This document shows, one piece after another, positions 19,980 through 64,000 of a DNA stretch of 64,000 nucleotides. The stretch's first letter is position 1; each line of letters opens with the position of its first letter. The position numbers and the translations under genes are program-made. The notes beneath the pieces were generated by a model, which saw only the letters and a list, made by a program, of their open reading frames with translations, did no database searches and was not told the origin of the DNA. The DNA is from Microcaecilia unicolor (Eukaryota), in the NCBI RefSeq assembly GCF_901765095.1, contig NC_044034.1, forward strand, positions 62,434,339-62,498,338, read 5' to 3'.

Positions 19980-20012
<33 letters not shown>

Positions 20013-29817: not shown

Positions 29818-29919
29818 TCTGGGCCCTGCCAAGAACAGGCAAGACAGACAGAACCAGAAACAGGAGGACCATCCTACAAAGAAACACAAGGCATGGGGAA
29901 TATGGCTCCTCCTATAGAT

Positions 29920-29951
<32 letters not shown>

Positions 29952-40369: not shown

Positions 40370-41260
40370 TTGTTGTTATGCCCCTCACCTCCGGTTCGGC
40401 GGGATGCTCCAGGGAACCAGGAACACCCACCGTTGTAGCGGGCCCGGTGCTCTCTTCAGCAGCACTGAGCTGGACCGACGCTCCTGTCGGCCACGCTGCC
40501 TTCACGCTGATGTTGCCGCCGTTCCCACAGGTACTGGGAGCACCGCTGTCCTTCCTGTGCCCCGTTCTGCGGCCTGCCCTGGGCCGTAACCATGCCTTCT
40601 TGCTTCACAAGGATTGGCTTCCTCCGCGGGCAGGCTTCTGACTCTCTCCCTCATTTGCCATTGGTCCTCGACTGGTCTCCCCCCCCCCCAGCTGGTCCCG
40701 GCTGACATCAGACGCCAACACTATTTCAGGGAAGCTCTTCCTCTGCTGCTTTGCTTCGGCTTCTAATTGGTGAGCTTTCTTCTTCACTGTATTTTGTGTG
40801 CATTTCTGGTTCTGGACCCTGCTAGTTCCTGGTATACTCTCTTGTCTGCTGCCTGCCTGTGATACGTCGCCTGGACCTGGTCTACTCTCTTGTCTGCTGC
40901 CTGCCTGTGATACGTTGCCTACTCTCTTGTCTGCTGCCTGCCTGTGATACGTTGCCTACTCTCTTGTCTGCTGCCTGCCTGTGATACGTTCGCTAGAACC
41001 TGGTCTACGCACTCTTGTTTGCTGCCTGCCTGTAATTAATGGACTGTACCTGGACCTGTTCCTTCTGCTCTCCATCAGCTGGCTCCTCATGGCACCCCGC
41101 TTCTTGCCTCTCAGTATAAGTCCTGTCTGCCGCCCACACCTGGGTGCTCAACCCTCAGGGAACGGCGGTCACCACAGGTGAAATTCGGGGTTGTCTGGGA
41201 ATCCGGGTCCGAATTCCTCGCACCCGGCAGCCCACTGCTCAGCACAGGAACTCACAAAGC
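40370..41260 (+). repeat. Unclassified ~850-bp interspersed repeat, copy 2, with 3.5 internal ~42-bp tandem units (ctactctcttgtctgctgcctgcctgtgatacg…)
   Basis: Colinear with 18466..19310, including the 3' block cacctgggtgctcaaccctcagggaacggcggtcaccacaggtga. Confidence 0.6.
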
Positions 41261-41489
41261 TGACAGGTGTTTCATTGATCTTGTGCTGGCATTGTATCAT
41301 ATCTGTTATGTGAATTGTATTCCTTGCTGTCTGAAAAACGAAAGAGAGGAAAAGACTGTGCAGAGTAAACACAGGAAACCAAAGAACGGAGGTGGTCAAA
41401 TGAAACAGAGACGTGAATCACAGTTGCAAATAGGAAGTCAGCCATTAATAAAGACTTCCTATTTGCACCTGTGATTTAACGCCTCCATT

Positions 41490-42210
41490 TTTTTTGGCCA
41501 CCTCTGCTCTTTGGTTTCCTGCTGTCTGCCATAGCTTTGTTTGTATTGCACTGACTTTACCAGAACACAGTGCTTTTACCACACTTAGAACATGTGAATG
41601 GTTTCACTTTATTTTGGATTTTCTTGTGTATTTTGTACGTTTTGCATTTGGCTGTATTTGTTTGAAAATGGATCAAGAAATAAAACATCCAAATCACAAA
41701 ACATTTTTCCAAACAGCATTTTCAAAAGGAAAAGAAACTTTTTTTTGTAGAAAATGACCTTTCCTGTTCTGATTTTGGACGTTTTAGAAAAGACGTCCAA
41801 ATTCAGACTTAGATGTCGTATCCAAAAATGCTGCTGGCGCATTTGACTTGCCCAGAGTCACAAGGAGCAGCAGTGGGAATTGAACCCATGCTACCAGGAT
41901 CAAAGCCCGCTGCACTAACTGTTAAGCCACTCCTCCTCTGTTTTAGATGTCTTGCATTTGGATGTCTTTTGTTCGAAAATGAACCAAAAAAAAGGACGTC
42001 CAAAACATCCAAATCACAGGACGTCCATAGTATTTTTGAACACAAAAGAAAGAAGTCCATCCTTTTCTAAAATAACCTTCTTTCCTGTTCGGAATTTGGA
42101 CGTCTTTGTAAAACGACTACATTCTGATCTAGACATTTCTTTCGAAAATGCCCCTCCACTTGACCTGCCCAGTGTTGCAAGGAATGTCAATGAGAGGAGG
42201 ATTTGAACCG
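41490..42210. repeat. Tandem duplication of a ~340-bp composite unit. Each copy ends in a minus-strand SINE head fragment (41811..41925; partial at 42130..42200).
   Basis: 41600..41840 and 41940..42130 share colinear words (ttgcatttgg…ttgaaaatg…acatccaaatcaca…ttcctgttc.gatttggacgt…). ORFs 41609..41842 (-) and 41952..42206 (+) are artefacts. Confidence 0.5.
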
Positions 42211-45129
42211 TGTATTGTCTGGTTCTCATATCACTAGACTTCTTTTCCACTCAAAATAACACACTGCTTCTTTAGTTGTACTCTGTACGTAGTATAACCA
42301 GAGGGAAATGTGTGAACCAGAAACTTGAAATCCAGTCATACATTTTTTTAAAGTTACATTTTGGATAGGGTCAAAGCCAAGTGAAACTATGTTGAATTAA
42401 TTTGTATTGTGACCAAGGGTACAGTTAAGTTTTGGAAGCCAAGCAATTCCAGATATCCGGATTTGAAAGTTACAGTTTTGATTATCCGACCTTCACTGAG
42501 CCGACCATTCAGCATATCCGACAGACCCCCGGTGACATCATGCATCTTTTCTTTCTGTTTTCCAATAGTGCAGGACCCTATTTTTATAGCAAAACAGCAC
42601 CGTTGTGAGCCGAGACCCTTCTTTTACTGCCTTTGTTTCTGCATTGTTTGAGTGGTTACCGTTGTTTTCTGTATTATCCATCTATTCATTTATCCAACAA
42701 CTGGTTTGGTCCCGTTTAGGTCGGATAATCGAGATTTGACTGTATTTATGTTTTTGCAAGTTAAAGTAAGATCCCTATATTTTAAAGAAAAACAATTGAG
42801 TATGCTTGAAAGCTAAATGTCTGTCTTCTGATGTTTGAAGGTTTTGGCATAATTTCTTGGATGCAGAATAGCTTTTTAAATGAGAATGAATTGAAAGCCT
42901 GTCAGGGATGTTCAACAACAAAACTGCATGTCTGGTTATTAACTTGCCCTAGCTCTGGGACCATCTACAGCATGAGGCAAAAGAAAAGTAACCCTCTAGA
43001 GCTTTTTTGCCATTTTCTCAGCAACTGCTTTGAATTTCAGTGAGAAATTTTACATACTTTTGTAGTCATCATACTTGCATATTACTATTAAACAACATTT
43101 AATTATCTTAAGCTGTGTTGATGTTGCTGACATTTTAGCATTACTACCTAGTGATTTTTGTGCATTAAAAATGTTCAAACTAAAACACGGTAAAATAACA
43201 TCATCCAAACGATACAGTTAACAGTGTGTCAGAATTTCACAGTCACCATGAATGCTCAAAGTGTTCACCCCCCAGCTTTAACATAGTTCCTTGGGGAAGT
43301 TCTAACAGCCTTGTTGATTGGTCCTTGTGGCAGGCTATCCGAGATCATCTGCAACAGTTTCCTTGAGTTCACCAATTGTTTGCAGAGGGTGGAGCTTGTG
43401 ATAGGCCTCCAACATTGCTCCCCAGACAAAAGTCTACATCACTCTGATGTCATTAACAGTAAGCTGGTACCCCGGTTTGTTTTTCAAAGTCTGTAACTTT
43501 GTGTTTAAAGATAATCTCATTCCACTCGATACATAAACGTAGAGAGTTACAACAAATAAAGTTGTAAAATTTCAAGTTGAAATTCCAAGCGGTTGCTGAG
43601 AAAATACCAGAAAACTTCAGGGGATTACACCCTGTAGATATTCTGGGGTTAACAGTCTACCAATTTATCTTGTTTATTTCAGAATTTATACCAAAGATAA
43701 TCTGGATCCTACCAATCTTCAAGATGTCGAAATTGCAAAGTATGCTGTTCTTGAAAAAGTAAGAGTTGGATCAGCTGAATTATTTTGCAGTTGAAGTTCT
43801 CTATCTTGTAAATCAATTAAAGTATTTTACTGACCTTTGCCTGATTTAAGTTTGTTAGTGCTACTGCTAGGGTCAAAGCCATCAGCACATGCAAATCCCG
43901 TGAGAGGTAAAGGACAAGCAGAGTGAGAGGAGGAGTAGTGATATACTAGAGCTTTGTGCAGTGATGACCTTGAACAGTAAGGCCCTCTATTAACTTATTA
44001 GGCAGCAGGACCAGTAAAGCGGCTGAGGTGGCAAGAGCTGTTCACTGTTGAAGGTCCCCAGTTCAGTTGCTTAACTGAGCCTTCCATTACCCAGATTGGC
44101 TGAGAGGGTGTTGAGGCGGCAGTGTTCAGTTTCCATGGCCATTGCTTATGAGCAGCACCAAGTTACCAGATTTAGGGCCTATGGTTTCAGAGTCTTAGTC
44201 TTTTTTTTTTGTTTGTTTAGCTCATAGAATAATGCCCCTGTTTATGAAATGTCATTAGGTTTCAATAGAGGCACTAGCCATTTTAAGTTGTGTACAGAGA
44301 TTTTTTACCATCTTAGGTGGGCAAGTTCCTCAGTATTGTAGTTGTGCCAGAAACAAGTAGAAGTTGTTCATTTTGACATCAGCAGACACTTTACTTTCCC
44401 AGTCCAAAAATGGTAAGGTATAAAATGGTATTGAAGTCAACTTTTGCTTATCAAACCACTAATACATGGAATACTTCAACGGAAGATATTAGAGCTATGA
44501 CTAATTATAAGTTCTTTTAGAAATCTTGAAAAACGTTTTTATTCTGCAAATATGTGTCTTTGAAATCTTAAAATGGGTTATTGGTTATTTAATAATGTTG
44601 TAATACATAGGTTTATCTAGTTATCATCTCTGGAAACCTGCATTGAATTGTTAGATATGTCATTTACAAGTACTGTAATGTAAGAGTTCAAGAACGAGCC
44701 CTGGTGCATGGCCCTTGGCTGAGCATTTGCATTGTAGTGACCTGATCAGCTATACAGGGTGGGGTGGGATTGGGGCTGAGTGGGGGGGAAGGGGGGTTAA
44801 GAAGGTGAAAAGGAAGGTTAATTGCTAGGGAGTAGGTAATAAAGGCTTATGGCACCAGATTCTAGCCCTCATTTCAGTTGAGCTGGAAGTATTAAGGAAT
44901 AAAAAGAAAAATGTTAATATCATAAGTGAGTTTTTTGTTCAAATGCTTTTCTCCTACCATTTTTTTATCTTGCGTGCTATAGTGGAATGCTTCTGCTGGG
45001 TGCACCAAGAGATAGAGATGTTAGCATGCCTGCCAGTCAGGCAATTTGATTAATGAAATGGCCACTGCTGACTGGTGCTATCTTATTTAGTACCATTACA
45101 TGTAGGCTTATAGGACCTTAAAAATATGA

Positions 45130-46620
45130 TGGGAGGGAATAGGGTTACCATATGGCCAGTTTTACCCGGTCATGTCCTCTTTGTGAGGACATGGCCAGGC
45201 ATCTGGGCAGGTTTTGCCAGCCTGCCCATTTGTCTGGACTTGCTGACGAACGGGTAGGGTGGTGGGCTTCAGGGTGTCCTCCCCTCCCCTCCTTTACCTT
45301 ATTGTAGTGTTCTGGTGGTCTAGTGACCTCTACGGGGCAGTAAAAAGCCCATCTTTCCTGCCTGGCGTGGCTGTAGACTGCCTTACTTCTGGCGCTGCTT
45401 CAAAATGCCTGCTGAGAGTTCAAGTGATGGCCTCATGAGACTTTCACATAAGTCTTGCAAGGTCACTGCTTGAACTGTCGGCAGCCATTTTGAATTGGCG
45501 CCAGGCGCAAGACAGTGTAGCCATGCCAGGCCCAAAGAGGCCACCAGGGCACTACAATAAGGTACAGGAGGGGTAGTGAACGAATGGAGTCGTGGGTGGG
45601 GGGAGACAGGAAAATTGGGGAGAGGATGTACATGGGGGGGGGGAGAGAGAGGGAATCTGGCTTTCTTTCAGGCAGATGATCAAAAGCAAACGCCGGCATG
45701 CCGGCGTTTGCTACCGCCCCATAATCAGAGCCCTCGAGCGAGTGAAACAACGCGCTCGAGGGCTCTTTGCGCAAGTAGCATGCAAATGCATGTTAAACAG
45801 GGCTTAGTGCATTCATCGCCGATGATCAGCGGTCAGCGCGCCAAAATTTGGGTTGCTGGCCGTGGCAAACCCTACGGCAGTTCCGAGCTGGCGTTAGGGT
45901 TTACAGATCATTGGGGAGGAATGGTGAGCCCTGTGTCCAGCATGCAGTTGCATGCTAGCAGGCCCCCGTTGCCCCCAAAGCAAACCTGCCAACAGGGGGC
46001 AGGAGGTCTGGCGGACCTCTGTTCCCCCTCCCCCCCCCCGACGATCCCACCCCCCCAGGTTCAGGGAGGGCTGGCAGTCCGGTGGATCTCCAGCCCCCCC
46101 AAACCCCCAGAAAATGGTCCCTGGTGGCCGCTGGCTAACCCCCCCCCCCCAGCAAGCGACAGGGGTGGGCTGGAGGTCCGGCGGACCTCCAGCCCACCCC
46201 AGCTCGCCCTCCCCCAGCGTTTTCAAGAATCCCTGGTGGTCCAGCATAAAAAAGAACCCCCTCCCAGCGAGCGACCGGGGGGGGGCTGGAGATCCGGCGG
46301 ACCTCCAGCCCACCCCAACTCCCCCCCCCACAACGTCTGAAGAATCCCTGGTGGTCCAGTGTAAAAAAGAACCCCCTCCCGCCCCCCCCTACCTTAGTTG
46401 GAGGAGGGAGGTAGGTAGCCTGCCTCCCTCCTCTTCCATGGGATGACGCTGCCGCCGCAAAATGGTTGATGACGTTGCTCGGGACAGGGGTAGTCAGGGC
46501 CTGGTGGTCCCATGGACCTCCAGCCCCTGTGTTTGACAGGTTTGGGCTTTTGACAGCCCAGATCTGTCAAACAAGTGCGGGAGGATTGTGCTGAGCGCAT
46601 GCTCGGCACAATTTGCCCGC
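45130..46620. repeat. GC-rich tandem array of ~120-bp units. The units contain the near-palindrome ctggaggtccggcggacctccag and ctggtggtccag motifs.
   Basis: Repeated blocks at 46040..46400 (…gggctggaggtccggcggacctccagcccacccc…ccctggtggtccag…aaaaaagaaccccctccc…). The ORFs on both strands here are low-complexity artefacts. Confidence 0.6.
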
Positions 46621-49600
46621 ACTTCTACCCCATGATCAGAGATAATTGCGCTGTTTAAATTTGCATGCATTATCTATGATCATAGGTCTAATAGGGCTCC
46701 ACACTGTTCCAGCGCTATTTTAGAGCGCTGTTGGAACAGCGCAGGGCTTTTGATCATCTGCCTGTTTGGGAGGGTGGAGGTGTGACAGGGGCCAGGGCAT
46801 GTTTCCTCTTTTTCCTTAGGGCAAATACGATAACCCTAGTAGGGAATCCTTTATTTCTGAAAGAAAGAGTGGCTCACTGAGTGGAGCAGAGCTGGTGAGC
46901 ATCCATTAAAACTTGGTAGCATATCACTGAGGGTGTGAGGTCTATGTAGAAATGTATTAAACTGGAAAACGTTTTTTCAGATTCTAACAGATTTAAAAGA
47001 AATGGCAGTTGTTGAGCTGCAGCAACTACCGGAAAATTATGCATTTCTATTTCGCATTTCAGCAAACTTTGGTTTATCAAATGGATCTCAGGTAATTTTT
47101 ATTGCCTTAAAAATCTTTTCACCAGTCTCTTAAAAATATTCTGTACAGATCTAAGTGATAAATAATTGGTATGATATGGACCGGCTACACTAAGCACGAC
47201 ACGAGTAAAAAACTTTAGTTAGTACATCGGGCTCTAAATGAGCATCTGACATTCTTTTTCTCTTTCCATTTCCCAAGGCAAAAGAGAACAGGAGAATATA
47301 CTTCAGTTGTATTAACTGCACAACAGTGCATAGTAAATACTCTTCATATTTTGTGGTGGTCCATTTTTTCATGAATTTAAGGCACATGCCCCCAATTTGG
47401 GCTCGGGTCCACCCAAAATTAGACATCTCCCTTGCTGTGGCTGGTGGATATCCTCAAGCTCCGCCAACTGAAGATCTCCTCTTCCTGTTTAGTGACCAGA
47501 ACTCTTCAAGCTCTGCAGCCAGTGTCAGTGTTCCTGGGGAGGTCTTCAGCTGTCAAGGCTTGGGGATCCCCACCAGCTCAGGTATTTTATATTTTGTATT
47601 TGGACGGGGGGGGGGGGGGGGAGGGCAGAGGGGTGGGGAGATAATTGTGTGCCCACGTTTGGCTCAGGCTCACCCAAAATCAGCTATCTGGCGACGCCAC
47701 TGATGTGTTCGATGCATTTTTAGAAGGTTTCCCAATATAGTTAAAGTAATTGGTAACACTGTGACAGTGTATTTCACTGAGGCAGCAAGTCAGCACAAAA
47801 GCATGAAAATATTTTCTGAATATAAATTTGTAGCACTGTCACCATCTATAGTAGATTGGTTTTAATGACACAGTAGAGAAAACATAACTCTTAGTAACAG
47901 ACTTCAAAATATTTTAAATGGAAAACACATAATATTCTCTCTTTCTCTGTGAGTTTATGCTGATTTGTCTAATCATGAGCTGACCTTGAGGCTTATTTTC
48001 AAAGCACTTAGCCTCCCAAAGTTCCATAGAAACCTATGGAACTTAGCCTCCCAAAGTGCTTTGAAAATATGCCTCCTTATATAGTAATGGAATCTGTAGA
48101 AAGCAAGTTCAGTGATATAAGTGTTTCTTTTATCACCAAACTGTGAAAGAGAAGAGAGTGTGAGGCATCATTAGTCCAGCCTGTTCATTAAAACATGGTG
48201 GTTTTGTGATTAACAGAAAGAAACACAGTTTCTACAGGTGAAAACTTCGAAAGAGGCTTGCGAAAGTTATGATGTCTATCTTGAAGATCTCAAGAAGAAA
48301 GATTTCACATTAAAAGAAGATGTCCCCCAAGAAGCAATCCGGTTTGCTTCTGAGATGCTGCAGGAGGTTTCTACTGGTTTTGATTTCATATGCTTTCAGT
48401 TTTACTTCTTTAGAGCAGTACTATGCTTTCTCTAGCTTTACAAGTTATTACAGTATATGAGAGATTTTTAGCAGTCAGTGGAAGCAGGAAAAGACAACGG
48501 GGGCTTAAGTGACTTGGTAGTAATGCGGAGCAGGAGAGAGAGTGTTGGATTGCCCAGATTTTATGAGCAGTGTTCTGAAAGGAGAGACATGAGTAGCACT
48601 TATGATCTTTTTTTGAACGTAAAGTTATTCAGCTCCTATTAGGCCTGATGCCAAAACACAGTAACTGTTGAGAATGTAAATATGAGAAAAAGTAAAACAA
48701 AAAACAATTTCTTTGAATAAATCCCTTGACCAAAACTAATACAGTACTGTGTTCTGGCTTAACATATCTCCCATATATCAAGAGATACTATGTTTTGGAC
48801 TTTTGTTACAGGCTTGAAAATGCATTCAAAATATTAAATGACTACCATGTTAAAAAATACAGGAACTTTATGCGGGAGGTGTGGGTCCCAGACAGGTTCT
48901 TTCCTACACATTTGGTGGACCTGTCCTAGGGTGGTCCCTTTTTGGCAGGCTACTATAGAAGCATTAGTAACTATGACGGACACATCCTTGGTGTGCAGTC
49001 CCTTGGTGTGCCTATTGGGTTTGCACAATGAAAGCGACTTTTGGGAGAAGAGCAAACTGATGTGATGGGGGTTGGCGGCAGCTAAGTGCCTCATAGCGCA
49101 ACGCTGGAAAACGATAGACCCCCCCCCCCGACACTGGGTGAATGGAAGTGTAAATTGGGACAGCTTCTACATATGGAACGCCTCACGGCGTATTGTAGAG
49201 ATGGAGACCTACGACGCAATGGGGGGTGGATTCGACTTCAACAATGTCTAGCAAGTGTATAAGATGGGTGGGATCTGGGAGTACGATTGGGGCTCGGAAA
49301 GAATGGGAGGGGAGGAAGGGATAGGGGGAAAGGGAGTTTGTCCCCAAGAACCAGGGGACAATCTCAAGTTATGTTGGGGATGACTATGGAAGGGGAAAAT
49401 GTTTCATGTTCACATAAAGGTTACCTGCAGAGTGGATAATGTTAGGAGGGGTATGGTTAGTAAGCTCAAAGAAGAAGAGTATGCATGGGCAATATGTATT
49501 TTCATTTGGTGCAAAAATGTTAGCAATTGTTTGCTTTAGTGAAGTTTATAGTGAATAAGCTGTTTACCATACTTTGTGTAAGTTGTTTGCTTAAAATTTA

Positions 49601-50344
49601 ACAAAAAAAATATAAAGAAAAAATACAGGAACTACAGGACATCTAGCTAGTTAACTCAAAATTTTTTCAAAACTAAGTAACTGTTATGTTTTTTTCAGGG
49701 AAGTATAGTGCAGGGGGAAACTTCAGGAGGTGATGTTTATCGAGGGGTCGGGGTTTGACTGGTTGCAATGCAGTTTTTGCTGCATTGTAGTCCCTTTTGC
49801 ATAATTTTGCACGGCAGGGGGTTTCTGCACAAATCCTGCAATGGTACTGTTGAAGAATTCCCCCAGGACTAAGGATTGAGAAACAGTATTTTTTATTATG
49901 TAATTACAATATAGCAAACTCTATCTGCCATACAGTGACTTGAACCAAAAACCATATAAAATATTAAGGGTCTAATTGTTTCAAGAATGTTTTTGCTTTT
50001 TAGTACTATTTCACGTGTGTATTGGGACTCAGTTACCCCACTGGATACACACCTATAAATATGCAACCAGAGTGTAAAAGAAGTTTGGTGATGCATGGAT
50101 GGAATCACGAAGTAGGTTTATGGGTTGAAAAATACTTTGCTGGATATATTTAGACCAAATTTGGAGGAGTTGTAATTGCATGTGGCCACGTTTTAGCTGC
50201 AATTTCAGCTAATTTTGTGATGCTATTCTATGAAAACACAAGGGCACTTCTGTGTTATAGAATAACTTCAAAATAGGTGTCTGTATGACCTCTCCACCTT
50301 AGGGTTTCCTGGGTGTGTGTGTGGCCCGCAGATACTGACCATTG

Positions 50345-52000
50345 TTTGAGTGGTGCTACTACTACTACTACTACTTAACATTTCTAGAGCGCTACTAGGG
50401 TTACGCAGCGCTGTACAATTTAACAAAGAGAGACAGTCCCTGCTCAAAGAGCTTACAATCTAATAGACAAGTGAACGGTCGGTCCGATCGGGGCAGTCAA
50501 ATTGGGGCAGTCTGGATTCACTGAACGGTAAGGGTTAGGTGCCGAACGCAGCATTGAAGAGGTGGGCTTTAAGCAAAGACTTGAAGATGGGCAGGGAGGG
50601 GGCTTGGCGTAAGGGTTCAGGAAGGTTGTTCCAAGCATAGGGTGAGGCGAGGCAGAATGAGCGGAGCCTGGAGTTGGCGGTGGTGGAGAAGGGTACTGAG
50701 AGGAGGGATTTATCCTGTGAACGGAGGTTACGGGCGGGAACGTAAGGGGAGATGAGGGTAGAGAGGTAGTGAGGGGCAGCAGACTGAGTGCATTTGTAGG
50801 TAAGAAGGAGAAGCTTGAATTGAATGCGGTATCTGATCGGAAGCCAGTGAAGTGACCTGAGGAGAGGGGTGATATGAGTATATCGGTTCTGGCGGAATAT
50901 GAGACGTGCAGCAGAGTTCTGAACAGACTGAAGGGGGATAGATGGCTAAGTGGGAGGCCGGTGAGGAGTAAGTTGCAGTAGTCCAGGCGAGAGGTAATGA
51001 GAGCGTGGACGAGAGTTCGGGTGGTGTGTTCAGAGAGGAAAGGGCGAATTTTGCTGATGTTAAAGAGGAAGAAGCGACAGGTCTTGGCTATCTGCTGGAT
51101 ATGCGCAGAGAAGGAAAGAGAGGAGTCAAAGATGACTCCGAGGTTGCGGGCAGATGAGACGGGGAGGATGAGGGTGTTATCAACTGAGATAGAAAGTGGA
51201 GGAAGAGGAGAAGTGGGTTTTGGTGGAAAGACGATAAGCTCGGTCTTGGACATGTTCAGTTTCAGGTGGCGGTTGGACATCCAGGCAGCAATGTCGGATA
51301 AGCAGGCCGATACCTTTGCCTGGGTCTCCGCGGTGATGTCTGGTGTGGAGAGATACAGTTGGGTGTCATCAGCATAGAGATGATACTGGAAACCATGAGA
51401 TGAGATCAGGGAGCCCAGGGAAGAGGTGTAGATTGAGAAGAGAAGGGGTCCAAGGACCGATCCCTGGGGAACACCAACAGATAAGGGGATGGGGGTGGAG
51501 GAAGATCCATGAGAGTGAACTTTGAAGGTGCGGTGGGAGAGATAGGAGGAGAACCAGGAGAGGACAGAGCCCTGGAACCCAAATGAGGACAGTGTGGCAA
51601 GAAGTAAGTCATGATTGACAGTGTCAAAAGCAGCGGATAGATCCAGGAGGATGAGGATGGAGTAGTGGCCTCTGGATTTGGCAAGGAACAGGTCATTACA
51701 GACTTTAGAAAGTGCTGTTTCTGTCGAGTGAAGAGGGCGAAAACCGGATTGAAGCGGATCAAGGATGGCATGAGAGGAGAGAAAATCAAGGCAGCGGCTG
51801 TGGACTGCGCGCTCAAGTGTCTCAGTCCTTATTGGGGTTTGGGGCGCTCCCTGAGATTGTTGACATGGAAGATTGGACCAGAGCTCTAGAATTAGAGTGG
51901 AGTGCCTACAAGGAGAAATTACAGCTGTGGCGATGTGACGAGGCATTGAGACAAACACAAGAAGAACAGAGGATAGAGCGGCAGATTATGGAAAGGTTCC
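50345..52000 (-). mobile_element. L2-type non-LTR retrotransposon, 5'-truncated. The RT ORF is 50453..51958 on the minus strand, and the 3' end carries a (gta)n microsatellite tail (plus-strand (tac)n at 50351..50369).
   Basis: RT motifs: [68 protein letters not shown]. The L2-specific [15 protein letters not shown] is also present. Confidence 0.8.
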
Positions 52001-53039: not shown

Positions 53040-56000
53040 GAAAAGATTGGACGTTCCCAGTCTACTTGTTTAGAGACCCACGATTTGGGGAATATTTACG
53101 GGCTAAATGGACTGAATATAAGCACTTTAACGAGGGTACGGTTGACAGTTCTACCAGTTTTTGGGAAGCTGCGAAAGCAGTATTAAGAGGGGAGATAATA
53201 AGTTATGTGGCACAATATAAACGTGCGCGGGATAGGGAAATTGTGCGGTTAGAAAAGAGACTAATTAAGTTGAATAGACAATATGGTCTAACCCCATGTA
53301 GCAAGGTTAGACAAGAGGTGATAGAACTACAAACAACTTTGAACTCCCTGATACATGATAGAGAATTGAAATCTCAAGCCTATTATCGCTTTCAGTTATA
53401 AAAGCATGGAAATAAAGGAGGCAAATTTCTAGCTAGACTTATAGCATCTAAATATTCATCTAAAAATGTAACAACTATTAAAAACAAAGAGGGGAATTAT
53501 CTTCATACTAATAAAGAGATTAGATCAGCGTTCCAGACATATTACCAAAGCCTTTATAAGGCGTCGGAACAAGAAGGACTTCCGGGTGAGCTATTTTTAG
53601 ATGGGGTTCAGACCCCTAAACTACAAGATAGGGATAGTACTCAACTAAATGCAAAAATTGGTGTTGATGAGGTGACATGGGTAATAACGCAAAGTAAAAT
53701 GGGTAAGGCCCCGGGCCCGGATGGGTATAAAGCAGAATTTTACAAGTTGATGGGTGACTCGGTGGTCCCAACACTGGTTAAGGTGTTTAATGAATGGATG
53801 GAGAATGGTAGGATGCCAGACCAATTAAATTTGGCTAGGATAGTTGTGTTTCCTAAGCCTAAAAGAGATGAAAAACTGGTAACCTCCTATAGACCTATTT
53901 CATTAATTAACCAGGAAGCAAAATTATTTGCAAAAATTCTAGCAAATAGACTGGGGCGAGTGTTACCTCATCTTATCCACACAGCTCAGGTGGGGTTCGT
54001 ACAAGGTAGATCGGTTTCCAAAAATCTGAGGAGTATTCTGGCAGCATTAGAAGGTTTGGGCCACTCCCAGGCACAAGCATTAATGATAAGCTTCGATGCT
54101 GAGAAAGCATTTGATAGAGTGGAGTGGCCCTTCCTGTACTCTGTGCTGGAAAGATATGGATTTCAGGGTAAATTTGTACAGGCGATCAGGGCATTGTATC
54201 ACCAACCTAGAGCACAGGTGATGGTGAATGGGAATATATCGGAGGAGATCCAGATTAGTCGAGGTACTAGACAAGGGTGTCCACTCTCACCTCTACTTTT
54301 TGCACTGCAGTTGGACCCCCTAATTAGAGACATATATGATTGTGTGGCGATTCCTGGGGTACAACTTAAAAAGCAGGAATTTAAACTTGCCGCGTTTGCG
54401 GATGACCTAATGATGGTTATTACAAAACCGAAGGAGACCCTGCACAATCTACTAGAGTTAATTCAAGAATGTGGAGATTACTCGAGCTTTAAATTAAACA
54501 TAGACAAATCTGAAGCTCTTGGGATAAACTTAGACATTCGAGCCCATTGGCCGGAAGGATTTCCTTTGAAACGAACGAGCAAATCTTTTACATATTTAGG
54601 GATTCAATTACCGGCTAATTTGAAGGAGCTTTATACATTGAATGTTACAAACATGCTGGAACAGACAACTCAACAGTTGGATTCATGGGGCAATTTAACA
54701 CTATCTTTGATGGGGAGGATTAGTCTTATCAAAATGGTGATATTGCCAAGATGGCTATACACATTACAGGTACTGCCCATAGTGTTATTGCAAAAAGATA
54801 TCAAGCGATTATATCGATTGATATCTAGATTCTGCTGGGCAAAAAAACGAGCTAAGATGCAGCTGAAACATATGTTGGGGGGATGGAGGCAAGGAGGCCT
54901 GGGAATACCTAATATAAAGTTTTATAATATGGCATGCCTCCTGCGCCAAACACGAGATTGGCTATATCAAACCCAGGAACACACACCTCTAGAGATGGAG
55001 GAAGCGTTATATAGTCCATATCATGGGATAACATTAGCACATTTACAGAAAAAGGAGATACCGCATAGACTTAGACAAAATGTTCTGATATTATCACTCA
55101 GAGCAGCGTGGAGATTCTTAGGGGAACTATTGGGGGGAGATTCAAGAGTAACTGAGTATCTAAACATCAGGGGGAATCCGTCTTTCGTACCCGGGCTGGA
55201 AAATAAAACATTTGATAGGTGGGCACAGGAAGGTGTTAATTGTATAGCTGATGTACTGGAAGAGGGAGGGGACATACTGCCACTGTCACAGCTATTGGCT
55301 CAGAGGGAGCAGGTTTGGGGTGATGTATACGCGCACTGTCAACTTAAACATTATGTACAAACATTAGATAAAACAGCATTGCAGTGTAAACTGGGCAACA
55401 AAATCAAAAAATTCTTTGATGAGATATCTGAAAATGCCCCATCTATATCCCAGATACATCGGAAGTTATGGGAGCTGGCTCCGATGAAGGAGATAACTAA
55501 GGTTAGACAGAGATGGGAAAAAGATATGAGCTGCAATTTGGAATCATGGGATATTACTGCGCAGATACAAAATATACCAAGAATAATTGGGGGCGCAGAT
55601 TACAGGGAATGCGCGTATAGAATAATTTACAGAGCTTATTTTACCCAAGTACAATTATATAAATCAGGGGGTATAGAGACAGCGCTCTGTTTGAAATGTA
55701 ATAGACATGACAATACTTTATACCATGCGCTATGGGGATGTGTAGTACTACAGAGATATTGGAGACAAATAGTTGCTTACCTGTCTCATGTTTTGGGTAG
55801 TAGAATAGACATGAATCCACGACAGTTGATATTAGATTTGAAAGATGAACCTTTAAGACTCAATGCTGATAAAACATTATTATATCGAAAGTTATGTCTG
55901 GTGGCGAAAAAATGTATTATGCAATATTGGACTGTAGCCAGTTCACCACCTTATTGGCATTGGCGTAACAGGGTGCACCAGTTGTTAGTGTGGGAGGCGA

Positions 56001-56110
56001 AAGAAGTTAAAGGACAGTACAAAAGGAAAATACGGTTTCTTAAAACATGGGGTAGCTACCTGGAAAAAATGACACAGAGAGGCCGAAGTTTGGTCATTAA
56101 TACTTTATAA
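53040..56110 (+). mobile_element. L1-like LINE (lineage 2), 5'-truncated with no endonuclease. It keeps the post-EN Z region (53066..53401) and an 812-aa RT to C-terminal ORF (53672..56110). A G-rich 3'UTR follows.
   Basis: Motifs FWEAAKAVLRGEIISYVAQYKRAR (Z region), KAPGPDGYKAEFYK, YRPISLINQEAKLFAKILANRL, GTRQGCPLSPLLFALQLDPL, FADDLMMVI, the C-terminal Cys/His region, and a poly-G run at 56165..56185. Confidence 0.8.
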
Positions 56111-57149
56111 AAGAACCATACATCACTACAATATTGGGATATATTAATATGAGTTAGTCAAGAGGGGTGGGGGGGGGGGGGGGGGTTAGCAGGGAAGAGT
56201 GGGAGGAGGGTGTAGAAGAGGGGATAGAGGAATAAGAGGTCTTGTATTACATTGGAGCGGTAAGCTGATCACTTAACATCACGGTACAATAATAGTTGAT
56301 TTACAATTGTACATTTGCCAAAGCAAAAAAGTTGTGTTATGTTGTTGATATGTTATGACTCCTTTTAACAATTGTGGACAAATAATGATGTAAAGTGGGG
56401 AGGGGGTTGGGGGGAGGGGAATAGAAAAAGAGGATTCAGTGAATGAAGCAGATACAATGTTATTGCAATGCTGATTGGAAAACTGAACTTTGATGTATGA
56501 AGCCTCCAAGTTGCATTGTATTGTGCCTTTCGATAATAAAAAAGTTTAAACATAAAAGACTGAAAAGAGCTCTGGCGCCAGCATTTTCTGGAATCTTGCA
56601 GAAAGCGGTGAAGTGGGCTGAGGAACATATGTCACTTGATTGGGTAGAGAGGCCCCCGAAAATATTAACTCATGTTAAGAGTGAAGCAGCGCTGTGAGGC
56701 ACTAGTGCGGAGGCAAGGATGGAGCCTGAATTAAATGAACTATGATGACAGAGTTACTGAGGGACAAGAGGCAAGCATAAGAACAGTACAGTTGTTTCCC
56801 AACAGCCCTGTGGATGGAGAGAAGAAAACAGTAGGCAGAGGTTGGAGTGGAACAGAAATGCCAGAAGTCAGTTTAGATGTGTATGAGATCGTAGAACACC
56901 TTTGAGAAATGAATGAGGAGACCTGGTCTTCTATTGGTGTCTAGAGTCTGGACATGTGGCAGGAGAAAGCTGAAGCTGGAGTGAAAGAGTAAAAAATGTG
57001 TTGGGTGTAGCATGGGCTGGCTCTGTGGAGAAGTTATCCAATGCAAAACGTGATGGAGCATTAAGTGTAATGTTGAGTGCAGTGTCCGGAACAATGTCTT
57101 GCACAGTGTCCACCGTTGCTTCCAAGGAATAGAGAGAAAACTCATCAAG

Positions 57150-57640
57150 AAGGATGATGACAACAGCGGTGGTTCCTTCTACTTCAGAAGCTTCTACCTC
57201 GGCTATGTGGCTTCAGCGAGTAGGCACTCGGGTGCCTGGGACAGGAACAAGCAAAACCTTTGGCGCAAGTCCCCTGGTAGAACTTTTCACTGGGAATGTG
57301 CCTGTTCCATGTTGCTTGGACACAGGTTCAGAAGTGTCAACTATTACCGCAAGTTATTTCAGAAAGCAACACCTGGAAGACCAGGTCGAGTTACAAGACA
57401 CACTGGTGAAACTATCTGCAGTGAATGGAATGGACATACCAATCATTGACTGCTTGGGCCAGGTGGTAAAAAGCTCTGGTATACTAATGGTCCAGGATGA
57501 TGCAGTTTATCTGCAAGTCAATTACATACCGGGAATAGCTGGAATAGATATTCTGCAGGAAGTTAACTGGAATTTACTGACGGACAGCTGCCTTCGAAAG
57601 GAGAAAGTACATAGAATCTGGAAGCAGGATTAGAATAAAG
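57150..57640 (+). mobile_element. Retropepsin (aspartic protease) fragment of an LTR-retrotransposon
   Basis: ORF 57154..57633 contains CLDTGSEVSTI (the DTG catalytic motif) and the downstream PGIAGIDILQE flap-like segment. Confidence 0.55.
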
Positions 57641-58333
57641 ATCAGGAACGCATTGGTTTAGTTAAGCTTGTGGGAAGAAAAATGTGGTCTACCGTTTTTG
57701 ACTGAATCAGTGTTGCTAGGAAGTTGTACCAAGTTGAAAGAGTGTGCGGAGCTGCCGGTGGTGGTAGTCGGGACAGAAACAATCATTTTCTTCCCATAGA
57801 AATTGATGGTGCCAAAAACGGGACCGAAGTGTGGCATGCAGTCAAACAGAGCGTGCACTTAAATGGAATGCAATGTATTTTCAAAGCACTTAAACATAAA
57901 AAGTTGCATAGTATCCTGTTGAACTTCATAAGTCTAAGCGCTTTGAAAATGAGCCCCAAAGAGTCCTATATTTTCAAATTTGTTTGCTAGTATTAACAGT
58001 CTTTTTATAAACTGAGAACAGAGGGCCAGAATTTCAGGAATATCTGAGCTCAAATCATGATTCTGTCCATGAAGAATAATATTGTACCAAGAAAAAAACA
58101 ACAAAGCGGAAGTGACCAAAAACAAAAAATTCACACCAAAGGTGCTGCAGAAAACTTTACTGATGTTCAATAGACTTGATATAAATTGTGTTTTGTCCAC
58201 AACGAGCCTGCATCAGGAGTCTGAAAACCTCACAATGGTCTATATATTAACACACTGTGCCTTAGTCCATTATACTGATAAAGGTTGTCAGTAATCAAAA
58301 ACTGCTGAATAACAACACAATCTTCAGTTTAGC

Positions 58334-60260
58334 ACACCACTGATAAGTGCAAGATTCATTTATATGCATGGTTCAAGACCTCTCCTCTGCAGGAAAGACT
58401 CCGCATAAGCGCGTGCATGGAATGTGGAAGCCGATTGGCGCGTGACAACCAACGAGATTTCAAATTTACCACCTCTTTAACTGCCACAGGCAGAATAAGC
58501 GAAAGAATGTTGTTAGAGCATACACCGGGGTCGTCGTCACCGCGGTGGAACTGTAAGACTTTAACACTGGCTGAACGAATAGAAGTTCTTAAAAAATTAG
58601 AAAACAAACAAAGTCAAGCATCTATTGCTAAAGAATATTGTGTCAATCCCAGTCAAATTTCACGTGTCTTGAAGCAGAAAGACCAGCTTCTAGAAGACTG
58701 GCAAAACAATACAAATCCACAACAGAAATGAAAACGGGCGGGAAAAGCTGAGGAGGTAGAACATGCTCTTCTTTGGTGGTTTTCTCGAGTCAGGAGCAGA
58801 CAGTTTCCTGTCAGTGGTCCACTGCTTATGGAGAAAGCTAACCAGCTAGGTAAAAGTCTTGGACTAACTGAATTCAAAGCCACTGTTGGATGGTTGGAAA
58901 GAAGGAAGGAGAGGAACAACATAAAATAAAAAAAAACAGCATGGTGAGAAACAAGACGCTGATGACTTTGGTGCTGAAAATTGGGTTGTTTCAGTTCTTC
59001 CTACCATCTTGAATGAGTTTGCACCTCGTGACATTTTCAATGCTGACAAAAACAGTCTCTACTGGCTAGCAATTCCTGATGGAACACTTGCATTCAAATA
59101 TGCCGAAACTACTGGAGATAAAACGTCGAAGGACCGACTGACGATCCTCCTTTGCTGCAATATGGATGGGAGTGAGAAGTTGGAACCCCTCGTCATTGGA
59201 AAGAGCAAACAGCCCCGTTGCTTCAAGAATGTTAAGCGACTTCCTGTGTCATACGAGGCTAATGCAAATTCATGGATGACTGGGGAAATTTGGAAGCAAT
59301 GGCTAAAGAAGTTAGACACTAGAATGCGGGCACAAAAGCGTCAAATTTTGCTGCTTTGTGATAATTGTGTGGCACACAGGGATGATGTCAGGCTGTCTAA
59401 CGTCAAGGTGGTCTTCTTGCCACCAAACACTACCTCTCTGATCCAACCTATGGATCAGGGCATAATAGCCAATTTCAAACAACATTATCGGGCTCTTGTG
59501 CTATGTCGTCTGATGAGTGTTATGGATGACCAGACTGGCAAGGATAAACGTGCTATTGATCTGGCTCGTAATCTATCACTGTTGGATTCCCTACATATGC
59601 AGAAAGAAGCCTGGATTCATGTTACACAGGCAACCATTGTGAACTGCTACAAGCGGGCAAGCTTTGTTAAGGATGTGGAGAGGGAAGAAACAGATGCAGC
59701 TGTTGCGAACATGTCAGACAAAGAGGTTATTGACATCCCAGCCGGTGTTACTGAAGAGGAGTTCCATCGCTACGTAACTGTTGATCACGATCTACAAACA
59801 GCTGAAGACAGCACTGATGTTGAGATATGCGCCTACACGCAGGCAACAACGGCTGATGATGGAACAGATGAAGAAATGAACAGCGAGGCACATGCTGACG
59901 AAATTCAATAACCTCCTCCTGTCACTTTTACAAGAGCGCTGGCGCTGGAGAGTCTCAATACCATGAGGGCCTATCTGGAGGCCACTGGATGTCAGTGCTA
60001 TGACAGGTTTTACCGTCTGGCAGACGTAGTGTATGGAACTCACAGACCCAAGATTGTACAGGGGACTATAACTGATTACTTCCAGTATGCCTAATGTCAG
60101 TTAACGGAGACTGTATACTGTACGTATAATAATAAACAGTACTGTACATATGTTTATCAGATGTCAAGCTTCTTTGGGTCACAAGGGTTAAGTGCACGCT
60201 CTGGTTAACTGCATGCATTTCTTTGGTCCCAGACCCTTGCACTTAAGCGGATTTGCACTG
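58334..60260 (+). mobile_element. Tigger/pogo-like (Tc1/mariner superfamily) DNA transposon. Its transposase is degenerate: a CENP-B-type HTH at 58417..58731, a second HTH near 58740..58920 in another frame, and the DDE domain at 59009..59911.
   Basis: HTH 'KTLTLAERIEVLKKLENKQSQASIAKEYCVNPSQISRVLKQKDQL'. DDE 'KDRLTILLCCNMDGSEKLEPLVIGKSKQPRCFKNV…SWMTGEIWKQWL…ILLLCDNCVAHR…LPPNTTSLIQPMDQGIIANFK'. Imperfect TIRs cagt…aagtgcaag (58334..) and cttgcacttaag…cactg (..60260), with TA after the 3' end. Confidence 0.75.
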
Positions 60261-60540
60261 TACACCTCTTTGAAACATTAGAACAAAAAGAGCATAACAG
60301 CAGAGTGAGACCCCATCTGGCATTTCTGTTGTGTGTAATAGATAAATACAAGGACAAGAGAGTATCTGAACAACATAATAGAAAAATCTCTCTTGATTAA
60401 AAACTACAAAGTGAGGGGTCACGTGATGCTCTAGAGAGAGGAAGACGTGGTCCCGCGTCCTCCTAGGCCCCGACTCCTAATGCCGCTTTAAAACGTTGGA
60501 AACATACCTAAAACGCATCTTCAAGTAAGAGGGAAATCTT

Positions 60541-61422
60541 ATGGAAAGATTTCTGAGTACACCAAAAGCATCGATGGCGAGTAGAGCCGGGAAAAAAGAA
60601 AAAGAAAAACCAAAGGCGTCAAGCAGCGCGGAAGATGGCCAGACGGCGCATGGAGGCGGCTCCTTCACGGAGGAGCAAATACGACAATTGACAGAAGTGG
60701 TGAGCACAACATTGGATCAAAAATTAGATAAACTTTGCTCAAAAATATCAAACCTGGAAGCGCAAGCAGTGGAGACGGTGCAGAGGCTGGGAGAACTTGA
60801 AAATCGGGTGTCGGAAGTGGAAGACACGGCAGGCCCAGTAACACAGAAGCTGCAAAAGATGGCGACGGAGATTGAGCATTTACAAGCGAAAGTAGACGAT
60901 CTTGAAAATCGATCACGACGTGGCAACCTTCGGATCGTAGGGCTTCCCGAGACGGTGACCGACAAGGTATTGCCTATAGTTTTAGAGAAGTGGCTGGCAG
61001 AAGAATTTGCCTTGTCGGATCACGCAGGGAAACTGTGTCTGGAGCGGGCCCACCGAATCGGCAGAAAGCAAGACGGGAAAATGGCCCCGCGAACAGTGAT
61101 AATAAAAATACATAACTATGTACATAAGGACGAAATATTAAGAGGAGCGCGCCTCAAAAGGAATGAACTGAGATATGATGGGAATCAGATACGTATTTAT
61201 CAGGACTATTCAATGGCCCTACAGGAGAAGCGCCGACGTTATACGCCACTCTGCCAGCAGCTGCACGAAGCACAAGTGCCTTTTATGTTGATATACCCAG
61301 CCATTTTAAAAGTGAAGACAGAAGGAAGATGGAAATCATATGATAATTTCAAAGAGGCACAAAAACATGTTCAAGAACTAATACATATGGGTAAGACCGG
61401 CTCGCCAGATGAGGAAGTTTGA
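60541..61422 (+). CDS. L1 ORF1p (RNA-binding chaperone), intact at 293 aa
   Basis: From the ORF track: coiled-coil heptads, 'ENRSRRGNLRIVGLPE', and the C-terminal domain 'RIYQDYSMALQEKRRRYTPLCQQLHEAQVPFMLIYPAILKV'. Confidence 0.85.
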   Translation: MERFLSTPKASMASRAGKKEKEKPKASSSAEDGQTAHGGGSFTEEQIRQLTEVVSTTLDQKLDKLCSKISNLEAQAVETVQRLGELENRVSEVEDTAGPVTQKLQKMATEIEHLQAKVDDLENRSRRGNLRIVGLPETVTDKVLPIVLEKWLAEEFALSDHAGKLCLERAHRIGRKQDGKMAPRTVIIKIHNYVHKDEILRGARLKRNELRYDGNQIRIYQDYSMALQEKRRRYTPLCQQLHEAQVPFMLIYPAILKVKTEGRWKSYDNFKEAQKHVQELIHMGKTGSPDEEV

Positions 61423-61865
61423 AAAATGTCAAGGAAGATCAGGTCGCCTGAGGTACACAAACGCTATGGGTATGATAAGATTACATAAGGAATATAGACA
61501 ATGAATTCCAACAACACGCAGTGTAATTAACACACAAGGGAGTTGGGGATGGAGGAGGCGGGAAACCCCACTAGCCCATAAGATATCATGGGTAAGGGAC
61601 ATGGGGAATTAAAAGAAACGGGGGGGAAAGGGTTAGGCAGCAGGGGGGAAGGGGGAGAGAGGGACACATAGAGGAAATAAGACATATAGAGTGCGGTTGG
61701 CAATTGGGATACAGAGGCATTTGATAAGGGTTCAGGTGATGAAACAGCAGGGGATGAGGAATGGGCAGATGGCAGACATAACACGGATCCCTGGGGGGAG
61801 GCTGGGTCCCCTAGGGACAGGGAAGGCGAACAGGCTGGTACCTTTTGATAAGGAGAAAGTAGGTA

Positions 61866-64000
61866 ATGAGTAAACGACTGAGTGGCGTTACACGGGTGAT
61901 CTCGTGGAATGTGTGTGGGATAACATCCCCAGTAAAGCGAGCAAAAATTCTTAGCGCACTTAAACGGCACCGGGTGGACATAGCTTGTATTCAAGAGACC
62001 CGACTGTCCATGGGTGAGCTTCAGAAATTAAAACGACAGTGGGTAGGAGAGGTTTTTGGCTCCCCAGCAGTGGGTAGACGAGGCGGAGTAGCAATACTAA
62101 TCCATAAAAATGCCATGGTACAGGCCCAGCTACTATTTGCAGATAATGAGGGAAGATACGTAGGGGTCCGTCTTAATCTTCAAGGGCAATCGTATTTACT
62201 AGTAGCAGTATATGCCCCTCAAACTGGCGGGAGAAAATTTTTTGCAGAGCTTTTTGCGCAGTGCCAGAAACAGGGGGCAGATCCCATAATAATGGCTGGA
62301 GACATGAATCAGGTGCTGGATCCCATACTAGATAGATCGAGGAATCAACGGGATGGGGGGACTTCTGGGTCGGGGGTGCTTGATACATTATGTGACGGAC
62401 TGGGTTTGGTGGACCCTTGGAGATTGCTGCATGAAGAAGAGCGGGATTACACGCACACTTCGAGGGCCCACGGAACCCAGTCTAGGATTGATTACATATT
62501 AGTGACATCTGGAGTGTTTAATCGAATTGTAGGTGCGGAAGTGGGCCCAGAGGAGCTCTCGGATCATGCTATAATTTGGGTAGATATTGAACCCCGGCCG
62601 TATTATCGTGGTTTGGGAGGCTGGAGATTCCCATCGTATTTACACTCCTCCACAGAGTTTACAGAATTCTTGGCCAAAAGATGGGAAGAATTCTTAAAAA
62701 ATAATGAACAACATCTTAGTGCCCCAACACTGTTTTGGTCCACTGCTAAGGCAGTGATGCGTGGAGAGATAATTGCATATGTCTCCAGGAGAAATCGAAT
62801 GATTGCACAAAGGATAGTAGAGCTGGAAGGAAAGGTTAAAATAGCTAGGAAGAAACATGCAGAGACACACACCAGGGCTAATTTAGACTCCTTGATTGCA
62901 GCGAGGGTGGAGTTAAATAGTTTACTACAGGAAAGATATCATAAGGCAATGACCACACACAGATACAATCTCCGCCGATATGGAGACAGACCGGGTGGTA
63001 TGCTGGCGCGCCTGATAAAGGGTGTCCGCAGGCCGCAGGTTATTACACAAATACGGACTCCCTCAGGTACACTCATATCGAATCCGGAAGGGATAGCAGA
63101 CACTTTCCATAAGCATTTTGCCCGTCTGTATGCGGCGGAAGAAATGGGGGCAGAGGCACAGGATAAAATAGGGGAAAAAATAAGAAAGTATCTACAGTGG
63201 TCGAATATGCCCCAACTGACAGGAGAACAACTGAATACTTTAGAGTCTCCTTTGGGAGCCAAAGAGGTACTGAAGGCTATACAGGCATTAAAACTGTATT
63301 CAGCTCCAGGTCCCGACGGTTTCTCGGGTGAATTTTATAAATCCCTGAAACGGCAGATCGTGGGCCCCCTTATGAGTTTCTATGAAACAGTGATGAAAGA
63401 GGGTAAATTACCTAGATACGCTAATGAAGCGCTGATTAGTTTAATACCGAAGCCTGGACGAAGCTTAGATGATCCAGCAGCGTACAGACCCATATCTTTA
63501 ATAAACGTCGACATTAAAATTCTGACCCGAGTTATGGCTGAGCGCCTGGCCCAGGCAATACCCTCCTTGATTAAAGGGGAACAGGTTGGTTTTGTCCGGG
63601 GCCGTCATTCGGTCATTAATGTGAGGAAACTTATAGCAGCAGTGGTGGAAGCTCCAGAAAGGGCACCCAAAGGTATAGTGATCAGTTTGGATGCAGAGCG
63701 TGCCTTTGACAGGGTGACATGGCCTTTCCTACAAGGAACATTGCGTTGGATTGGAGTGCAGGGTTGGTTTGCGGGAGTATTGGGGGCGCTTTATACAGAT
63801 CCGAGAGCTCGACTGATAGTTAATGGGGTAAGAACGGATGAATTTCTGATAAGAAGAGGGACACGACAGGGATGCCCACTATCCCCATTGCTTTTTCTGT
63901 TGGCGTTAGAACCCCTTTTATGTAATATAAGGCAAAACCCTGGGATCAAAGGTGTGGAGGTAGGAGAAGAAGTACTTAAGCTCTTAGCATATGCAGACGA
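61866..64000 (+). CDS. L1 ORF2p (APE-type endonuclease plus reverse transcriptase), N-terminal 711 codons. The ORF is open to the window end.
   Basis: Hand translation in frame 3 from the ATG at 61866 to 64000 finds no stop. It was not in the supplied ORF track because it has no terminator within the window. Confidence 0.8.
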   Translation, partial: MSKRLSGVTRVISWNVCGITSPVKRAKILSALKRHRVDIACIQETRLSMGELQKLKRQWVGEVFGSPAVGRRGGVAILIHKNAMVQAQLLFADNEGRYVGVRLNLQGQSYLLVAVYAPQTGGRKFFAELFAQCQKQGADPIIMAGDMNQVLDPILDRSRNQRDGGTSGSGVLDTLCDGLGLVDPWRLLHEEERDYTHTSRAHGTQSRIDYILVTSGVFNRIVGAEVGPEELSDHAIIWVDIEPRPYYRGLGGWRFPSYLHSSTEFTEFLAKRWEEFLKNNEQHLSAPTLFWSTAKAVMRGEIIAYVSRRNRMIAQRIVELEGKVKIARKKHAETHTRANLDSLIAARVELNSLLQERYHKAMTTHRYNLRRYGDRPGGMLARLIKGVRRPQVITQIRTPSGTLISNPEGIADTFHKHFARLYAAEEMGAEAQDKIGEKIRKYLQWSNMPQLTGEQLNTLESPLGAKEVLKAIQALKLYSAPGPDGFSGEFYKSLKRQIVGPLMSFYETVMKEGKLPRYANEALISLIPKPGRSLDDPAAYRPISLINVDIKILTRVMAERLAQAIPSLIKGEQVGFVRGRHSVINVRKLIAAVVEAPERAPKGIVISLDAERAFDRVTWPFLQGTLRWIGVQGWFAGVLGALYTDPRARLIVNGVRTDEFLIRRGTRQGCPLSPLLFLLALEPLLCNIRQNPGIKGVEVGEEVLKLLAYAD

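Follow-up and report, generated by a model that had tools for sequence, protein, structure and literature searches.

A probably young L1 retrotransposon, 5'-complete and intact as far as visible, at the edge of a 64-kb stretch of the Microcaecilia unicolor genome

The 64,000 nucleotides of Microcaecilia unicolor DNA analysed here (assembly GCF_901765095.1, contig NC_044034.1, positions 62,434,339 to 62,498,338 of the forward strand; hereafter the window, with position 1 as its first letter) end inside a retrotransposon of the L1 clade, of which the 5' ~3.6 kb lie on the plus strand and reach the window edge at position 64000. With a probability of roughly 0.85, this element is young, complete at its 5' end and intact as far as it can be seen. 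It contains a 5' leader, a first open reading frame (ORF1), a spacer and a second open reading frame (ORF2), both frames being on the plus strand (Table 1). Judged from the sequence, this layout appears to be of the type with a short 5' untranslated region (UTR) and a long inter-ORF spacer that is typical of the clade-2 L1 elements of amphibians, fishes and lizards. The biology is ordinary, that of a textbook non-mammalian L1 of a known sort. The ORFs have ~47% GC and, in contrast to those of human L1, are not A-rich (29-35% A). Within the window, the element has no long terminal repeats (LTRs) and no flanking direct or inverted repeats.

ORF2 starts at an ATG placed directly behind an in-frame TAG (61860-61862) and, as a preliminary description of this DNA had stated, runs for 711 codons without a stop, up to position 63998. 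The same stretch read one base out of frame has 68 stops, and the open frame is therefore far beyond chance. The Pfam families matched by its product, ORF2p, are Exo_endo_phos at residues 12-234 (E 3.7e-23) and RVT_1 at residues 527-711 (E 2.2e-23), the second match covering profile positions 1-154 of 205 up to the window edge. An endonuclease of the apurinic/apyrimidinic (APE) type occupies residues ~10-240 (nucleotides ~61893-62585) and is followed by a linker/tower region and by the fingers and palm of a reverse transcriptase (RT). The L1 endonuclease structures 1vyb and 8sp5 match ORF2p at E ~1e-27, and the residues N15, E44, Y116, D146, N148, YTHTS (195-199), D209 and SDH (232-234) are present, corresponding to N14, E43, Y115, D145, N147, T192, D205 and S228-D229-H230 of the human protein. 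In the RT, motif A reads SLDAERAFD (607-615) and motif B RQGCPLSPLLF (667-677), while motif C is cut after Y709-A710-D711 (63990-63998), the final window bases GA allowing either Asp or Glu at the next position. The earlier statement that all catalytic motifs are conserved thus stands for the endonuclease and for RT motifs A and B, but goes too far for the RT as a whole.

Among solved structures, ORF2p is matched best by human L1 ORF2p (8sxt, 8uw3 and 9k6g; E 1.9e-112), with which it is colinear over residues 9-702 of 1275, and the R2 proteins come far behind (E 1e-24 or weaker). Identity to the human protein is 32%, being 29% in the endonuclease, 25% in the linker/tower and 44% in the RT. Since relatives measure 1,217-1,275 amino acids, a full ORF2 of ~1,220-1,275 codons is expected, of which the 711 visible codons represent ~58%.

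The 293-residue product of ORF1, ORF1p, was also said to be intact, and no disabling change was found in its reading frame, which opens at the first ATG, four codons past an in-frame TAA. The protein begins with a basic, disordered N-terminal region, followed by a coiled coil (residues ~45-125, matched by coiled-coil families, with RhxxhE motifs at residues 82-87 and 89-94), an RNA recognition motif (RRM; ~127-220) and a C-terminal domain (CTD; ~220-267). A phmmer search of the PDB gave human L1 ORF1p as the best match (2ykp/2yko, E 1.2e-11, residues 82-267), along with the mouse ORF1p structure 2ldy (E 1.9e-8) and the CTD structure 2jrb (E 1.5e-4), and the Pfam family Transposase_22 was reached at a sub-threshold level (E 0.0064, 17.2 bits against a cutoff of 22.4). 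An arginine pair (in KRRRY, 230-234) and a tyrosine (in IYPAIL, 251-256) are kept, and these align with R261/R262 and Y282 of human ORF1p, residues of functional importance. By its predicted architecture, ORF1p is of the L1 type, and neither of the Jockey-like CCHC type nor of the esterase type, following the classes defined in PMC3905857. The 882 bp of ORF1 compare with 877±70 bp in fish and ~0.88 kb in clade-2 L1 (PMC5381506).

Relatives were sought among 5.8 billion proteins with a word-indexed search and among 1.84 billion representative proteins with an exhaustive HMMER search. Both together yielded tens of thousands of ORF2 relatives, none above 39% identity. The nearest named ones are frog proteins (Leptobrachium and Hyla, 36%), followed by fish and lizard L1 (30-34%; fish 33-34%). 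One of the database entries, XP_056431006.1 (P0162, Hyla sarda), is annotated as Ras-related protein Rab-24 isoform X1 and has 668 amino acids, of which residues 9-665 align with L1 ORF2p; this annotation looks like a transposon mislabel or fusion. In a neighbour-joining tree of endonuclease and RT, in which bootstrap values are direct bipartition counts and from which curated references of Tx1 and other clades were absent, the element fell together with the L1 of human, lizard and fish (62% bootstrap) and away from plant-type and other matches.

Another LINE group, such as the site-specific Tx1 group or another APE-type clade, was also considered as the source of the element and was rejected as very improbable. 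Such an origin would agree with the low identity to labelled L1 proteins (32% to human, 33-36% to frog, fish and lizard), which were compared in a set holding no labelled Tx1 reference, and with the proximity of a DNA transposon, given that Xenopus Tx1 inserts into one. However, ORF1p is of the L1 kind, with coiled coil, RRM and CTD, has no CCHC knuckles and matches human and mouse ORF1p structures; ORF2p stays colinear with the human protein through the linker/tower; the tree places the element with vertebrate L1; the whole architecture is the one published for L1 families of frogs and fishes; and the element lies outside the neighbouring transposon, ~150 bp from its end. Membership in the L1 clade proper is therefore the preferred reading.

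That neighbour is a Tigger element, whose 3' inverted repeat ends ...GCACTG at 60260 and is followed by the TA target dinucleotide at 60261-60262. The preliminary description had the L1 abut this end, with a 5'UTR of ~280 bp containing CpGs and an E-box. The CpGs and the E-box are there, but the leader is more likely ~128 bp long, and direct contact with the Tigger is improbable, as ~150 bp separate its end from ~60413. None of the eight CpGs that precede ORF1 falls outside 60422-60514, within the final ~120 bp before that frame, and the intervening DNA is background-like in composition. The proposed leader begins with the G-rich GAGGGGTCACGTGATGC at 60413 and includes the palindromic E-box TCACGTGA (60419-60426; core CACGTG at 60420-60425). 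Immediately upstream, at 60399-60412, stands the 14-bp AAAAACTACAAAGT, preceded by TT at 60397-60398, and this is a candidate 5' target-site duplication at a TT/AAAA site of the L1 endonuclease. As TTAAAA occurs 54 times on the plus strand of the window, or ~1 per 1.2 kb, finding such a site 7-20 bp upstream of an independently chosen point is a ~1% event. The confinement of the CpGs to the end of the leader and the TT/AAAA site 14 bp upstream make it more likely, by analogy with known L1 insertions, that the 5' end is nearer 60413 than 60262.

Frog, fish and lizard clade-2 L1 have leaders of 0.14-0.23 kb with ~7 CpGs and conserved G-rich 5' termini (PMC5381506), and the proposed leader fits these in length, CpG number and GC. 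Taken with the element, the clade-2 L1 of Xenopus, zebrafish and Anolis share leaders of ~0.13-0.23 kb, ~7-8 CpGs and a G-rich start, although the 5' terminus of the element, GAGGGGTCACGTG, is not identical to the consensus termini of frog (GGGGGCGTGGCC), lizard or zebrafish. A second and older L1 of the window, L1-b, has a G-rich start too, GGGAGGAAGTGACGTCATG, located after TT and AAAAGGCTAGGTATACT, and its leader of ~148 bp resembles that proposed for the element in length and start motif; when aligned, the two leaders show no real homology.

Purines make up 69% of the spacer and G alone 35%, and it contains 7 runs of at least 4 G and two motifs of the G-quadruplex type (61620-61655 and 61793-61822). 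It has stops in all frames and 11 ATGs, and because of these ATGs simple scanning or reinitiation looks inefficient as a route to ORF2. The predicted RNA fold of the spacer is not more stable than shuffled sequences (minimum free energy z +0.6), no tandem repeats of note were found, and an Rfam scan of 57000-64000 gave nothing beyond a chance-level mir-992 match inside the Tigger. In the clade-2 L1 of frogs, fishes and lizards, spacers typically measure 257-1,032 bp, G-rich stretches have been reported in those of lizard clade 2, and elements resembling internal ribosome entry sites (IRES) have been predicted in long L1 spacers (PMC5381506). On the minus strand, a 155-aa ORF with a TTG start (61527-61994) spans the spacer and the start of ORF2; it is rich in Pro and Ser, a composition expected from the C-rich complement of a G-rich spacer, and is most likely spurious.

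G-rich non-coding tracts recur in other L1 copies of the window. The spacer of L1-b (33369-33812; 444 bp, 41% G, 12 runs of at least 4 G) is near-equal in length to that of the element (L1-a), while the RTs of the two are ~40% identical. In L1-c, the third copy, the 3'UTR (56111-56545) has a run of ~16 G and other G-rich polypurine stretches before its AATAAA (~56535). Such recurrence is in keeping with a published proposal, according to which L1 families that share a genome become alike in non-coding features specific to their host.

The likeness to clade-2 L1 (PMC5381506) extends beyond the leader to the ~0.88-kb ORF1 with its regular coiled coil and RhxxhE motifs, to the long spacer, to an ORF GC content that falls inside the range of frogs or at its upper limit, and to the presence of several deeply divergent lineages in one genome. 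Clade-2 L1 have an ORF2 of ~3.77 kb with the Cys-His motif CX2-3CX7-8HX4C, an AATAAA and a poly(A) tail. Human L1HS (ORF1p 2ykp/2yko; ORF2p 8sxt/8uw3/8c8j) has in common with the element the order of the two ORFs, an ORF1p made of coiled coil, RRM and CTD with the arginine pair and the tyrosine, and a colinear ORF2p running from endonuclease through tower to RT palm, with every checked catalytic residue in place. It differs in its leader (~0.9 kb with a CpG island, against ~0.13 kb), in its spacer (~40 bp in PMC5381506, against 443 bp) and in motif C, which is FADD in the human protein and YAD(D/E) here. The closest sequences found are two Logan contigs, SRR19345895_14644 (L001, protein P0001) and SRR13444059_355830 (L002, protein P0002), and the protein P0159, at 38-39% identity over endonuclease and RT and 32% in ORF1p. 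P0001 is a 1,217-aa ORF2p with a YADD motif, 38% identical to the element over its residues 5-700. Both contigs also have an ORF1, a long spacer (~660 bp in L001, ~514 bp in L002) and an ORF2, but their spacers are T-rich, whereas that of the element is G- and purine-rich, and they belong to a separate family.

The description of the element as young agrees with its high CpG retention and with the state of its ORFs, which would not survive more than ~1-2% of neutral decay. The observed/expected CpG ratio is 0.71 for the element, a figure whose weight as a sign of age depends on the CpG content of the source element, and reaches 1.0 in ORF1, compared with 0.31-0.42 elsewhere in the window (1-18000, 26000-32700 and 38000-50000) and 0.33-0.54 in its decayed L1 copies. 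No disabling mutation is present in the 3,015 visible coding bases (293+711 codons). Neutral decay, simulated with hypermutable CpGs and frameshifting indels, left both visible ORFs unbroken with a probability of 12-23% at 0.5% divergence, of 1-5% at 1% and of less than 0.3% at 2%; given this collapse by 1-2% divergence, and assuming no selection, we infer a recent insertion.

Open ORFs and conserved residues, taken alone, would fit a recent insertion and purifying selection on a single copy equally, and a domesticated L1-derived host gene that keeps the ORFs open was considered for that reason. It was rejected as the least credible of the alternatives: the complete transposon layout is kept, including the leader, ORF1, a non-coding spacer with 11 ATGs and an ORF2 with intact endonuclease and RT; CpGs are retained in the non-coding parts as well; the surroundings are dense in transposons, and no host gene was detected in them; and no orthologue above 39% identity was found among the 1.84 billion representative proteins, where closer relatives would be expected of a conserved host gene.

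Several points weigh against the reading of the element as a young, complete and intact L1. About 42-45% of ORF2 lies beyond the window, and with it the second catalytic Asp of the RT, its motifs D and E, its thumb and the Cys-rich motif, which would be expected ~1.3-1.5 kb past position 64000; the 3'UTR, the tail and the 3' target-site duplication also fall outside. The position of the PCNA-interaction (PIP) box reads ADTFHKHF, without the canonical Gln that human L1HS has. The evidence for the 5' boundary consists of composition and analogy, and the analogous candidate duplication of L1-b (32300-32316), obtained when the same rule of a G-rich start after TT/AAAA was tried on that copy, has no second copy downstream within the window. 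The best relatives are distant (38-39% identity for ORF2, 30-36% for ORF1), and the bootstrap support is moderate, the tree giving the element no firm position inside the vertebrate L1 group. A search for further copies of the family turned up none in the window (DNA self-BLAST), in the protein collections or in metagenome contigs; an exact look-up of ORF1p returned no record, and two metagenome scans, one guided by protein and one using exact 24-mers, were negative.

These points bear above all on the capacity to move. The element could be a recently inserted but dead copy, with an ORF2 that is broken, 3'-truncated or rearranged past the window edge, or that is inactivated by missense changes, an explanation that competes with competence only and leaves the L1 identity untouched. 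Its probability is put slightly above even. In humans, most full-length L1 copies carry damaged ORFs, and of those whose ORFs are intact about one in two proves active in assays. With 58% of ORF2 visible and the canonical Gln absent from the PIP-box position, and as no other copies provide a consensus or a divergence figure, private missense changes cannot be spotted and a missense-inactivated copy is indistinguishable from an active one. Against a dead copy stand the 3,015 intact coding bases, the presence of all catalytic and functional residues checked and the high CpG retention. The unseen part of ORF2 is probably open as well, our own calculation from the simulated decay rates and a flat age prior giving the remaining ~1.55 kb only about a two-thirds chance of being so. 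That the copy is actually mobile is rather doubtful.

By homology with the well-studied L1 of human and mouse, the young element, if competent, may follow the usual L1 life cycle. The short internal promoter (~60413-60540) would drive a bicistronic RNA, whose ORF1p product would trimerise through its coiled coil and coat the RNA with its RRM and CTD. ORF2p, encoded beyond the G-rich spacer, would be translated without scanning, through an IRES-like mechanism or some other, and its APE-type endonuclease would nick genomic DNA at sites resembling TT/AAAA. The RNA would then be copied into the nick by target-primed reverse transcription, presumably the same mechanism as that of human L1HS at TT/AAAA, yielding a poly(A) end and target-site duplications.

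Table 1. Coordinates of the L1 element, its neighbour and other retroelement features of the window
Feature	Positions	Strand	Remarks
Tigger/pogo 3' terminal inverted repeat and TA (neighbour, outside the L1)	60188-60262	+	Decayed copy
AT-rich DNA between Tigger and probable L1 start	60263-60412	.	34% GC, CpG-free
Proposed 5'UTR / internal promoter region	60413-60540	+	128 bp, 50.8% GC, 8 CpGs
ORF1	60541-61422	+	293 aa, 882 bp, intact
Inter-ORF spacer	61423-61865	+	443 bp
ORF2, N-terminal 711 codons	61866-64000	+	Open to window edge
L1-b, older full-length-like L1	~32317-37614	+	Broken into several frames
L1-c, 5'-truncated or degraded L1	53048-56545	+	In-frame stop upstream of 53672
Decayed L1-like RT fragment	7974-8687	-	Three frames; 27-39% identical to ORF2 of the element; CpG observed/expected 0.33
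DIRS-like retroelement	~20280-24750	+	Long open frames; in GC-rich block 18000-26000
501-aa ORF with RVT_1 (E 2.6e-31)	50453-51958	-	L1 and group II/retron RTs are only remote matches (E ~1e-7)
368-aa ORF with CCHC zinc knuckle	21-1127	+	At window start

Three distinct and highly divergent L1 lineages had been proposed for the window, and pairwise RT identities of 40-45% bear this out; the accompanying remark that several lineages are usual outside mammals finds the same pattern described in PMC5381506 and PMC5203782. The L1-like segments at 32747-37614 (+), 53048-56110 (+) and 7974-8687 (-) share 37-45% amino acid identity with the element and with one another. L1-b has its ORF1 ATG at ~32466, an in-frame stop at ~32718, an endonuclease region at 33825-34526 and an RT region extending to ~37614. 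In L1-c, the open C-terminal part of ORF2 (812 aa, 53672-56110) matches residues 464-1247 of human ORF2p (E 1.9e-96), and its 3' end has, besides the AATAAA, only a very short A run.

The neighbouring element (57820-60260) is a decayed Tigger/pogo copy with a CENP-B-like DNA-binding domain, a DDE_1 transposase, inverted repeats and a TA target site. Its inverted repeats (57820-57862 and 60188-60230) are 84% complementary, the 5' repeat lacks its outermost ~30 bp, and the transposase is split into a 104-aa ORF (58417-58731; CENP-B_N, E 3.8e-12) and a 300-aa ORF (59009-59911; DDE_1, E 2.7e-48). An internal 29-bp hairpin (57877-57950) is the site of the chance-level mir-992 match (E 0.041; 26.9 bits, where the gathering score is 79).

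The DIRS-like retroelement, placed in a block of ~55% GC with a CpG observed/expected ratio of 0.62, is possibly young too. Its gag-like ORF (20534-21883) has a LAP2alpha-type domain, its RT lies at 21870-22655, and a tyrosine recombinase (motif HSTR...HY) takes up the C-terminal part of 23100-24746, the closest relatives of the recombinase being from the caecilian Rhinatrema (53-60%) and from frogs (46-49%). Together with the frog origin of the nearest named ORF2 relatives, this points to an amphibian as the likely host. Two Rhinatrema bivittatum proteins, P0117 and P0118, align with 97-99% of the recombinase query and are annotated as hnRNP A1 isoform X1 and protein-glutamate O-methyltransferase isoform X1; these names, like the Rab-24 one, look like transposon mislabels or fusions. 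Of the two remaining frames, the 501-aa ORF is a candidate for another retroelement class, Penelope-like or of another LINE clade, and the 368-aa ORF probably encodes a gag protein, either of an LTR-type element or of another retroelement.

The significance of the young L1 is mostly one of annotation, as intact-looking copies of divergent L1 lineages are to be expected in the genomes of amphibians, fishes and reptiles. Should the unseen half prove intact, the copy would be a candidate source of insertional polymorphism in its host, and it could also serve to represent an L1 lineage for which the searched collections offer no close sequence. A more speculative view, to which little probability is given, is that the element belongs to a currently active, low-copy and deep-branching vertebrate L1 lineage of an amphibian-like host, with a G-run-rich spacer that is common to a second lineage. 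Were this true, host-specific convergence would shape the region through which ORF2 is translated, possibly via G-quadruplexes.

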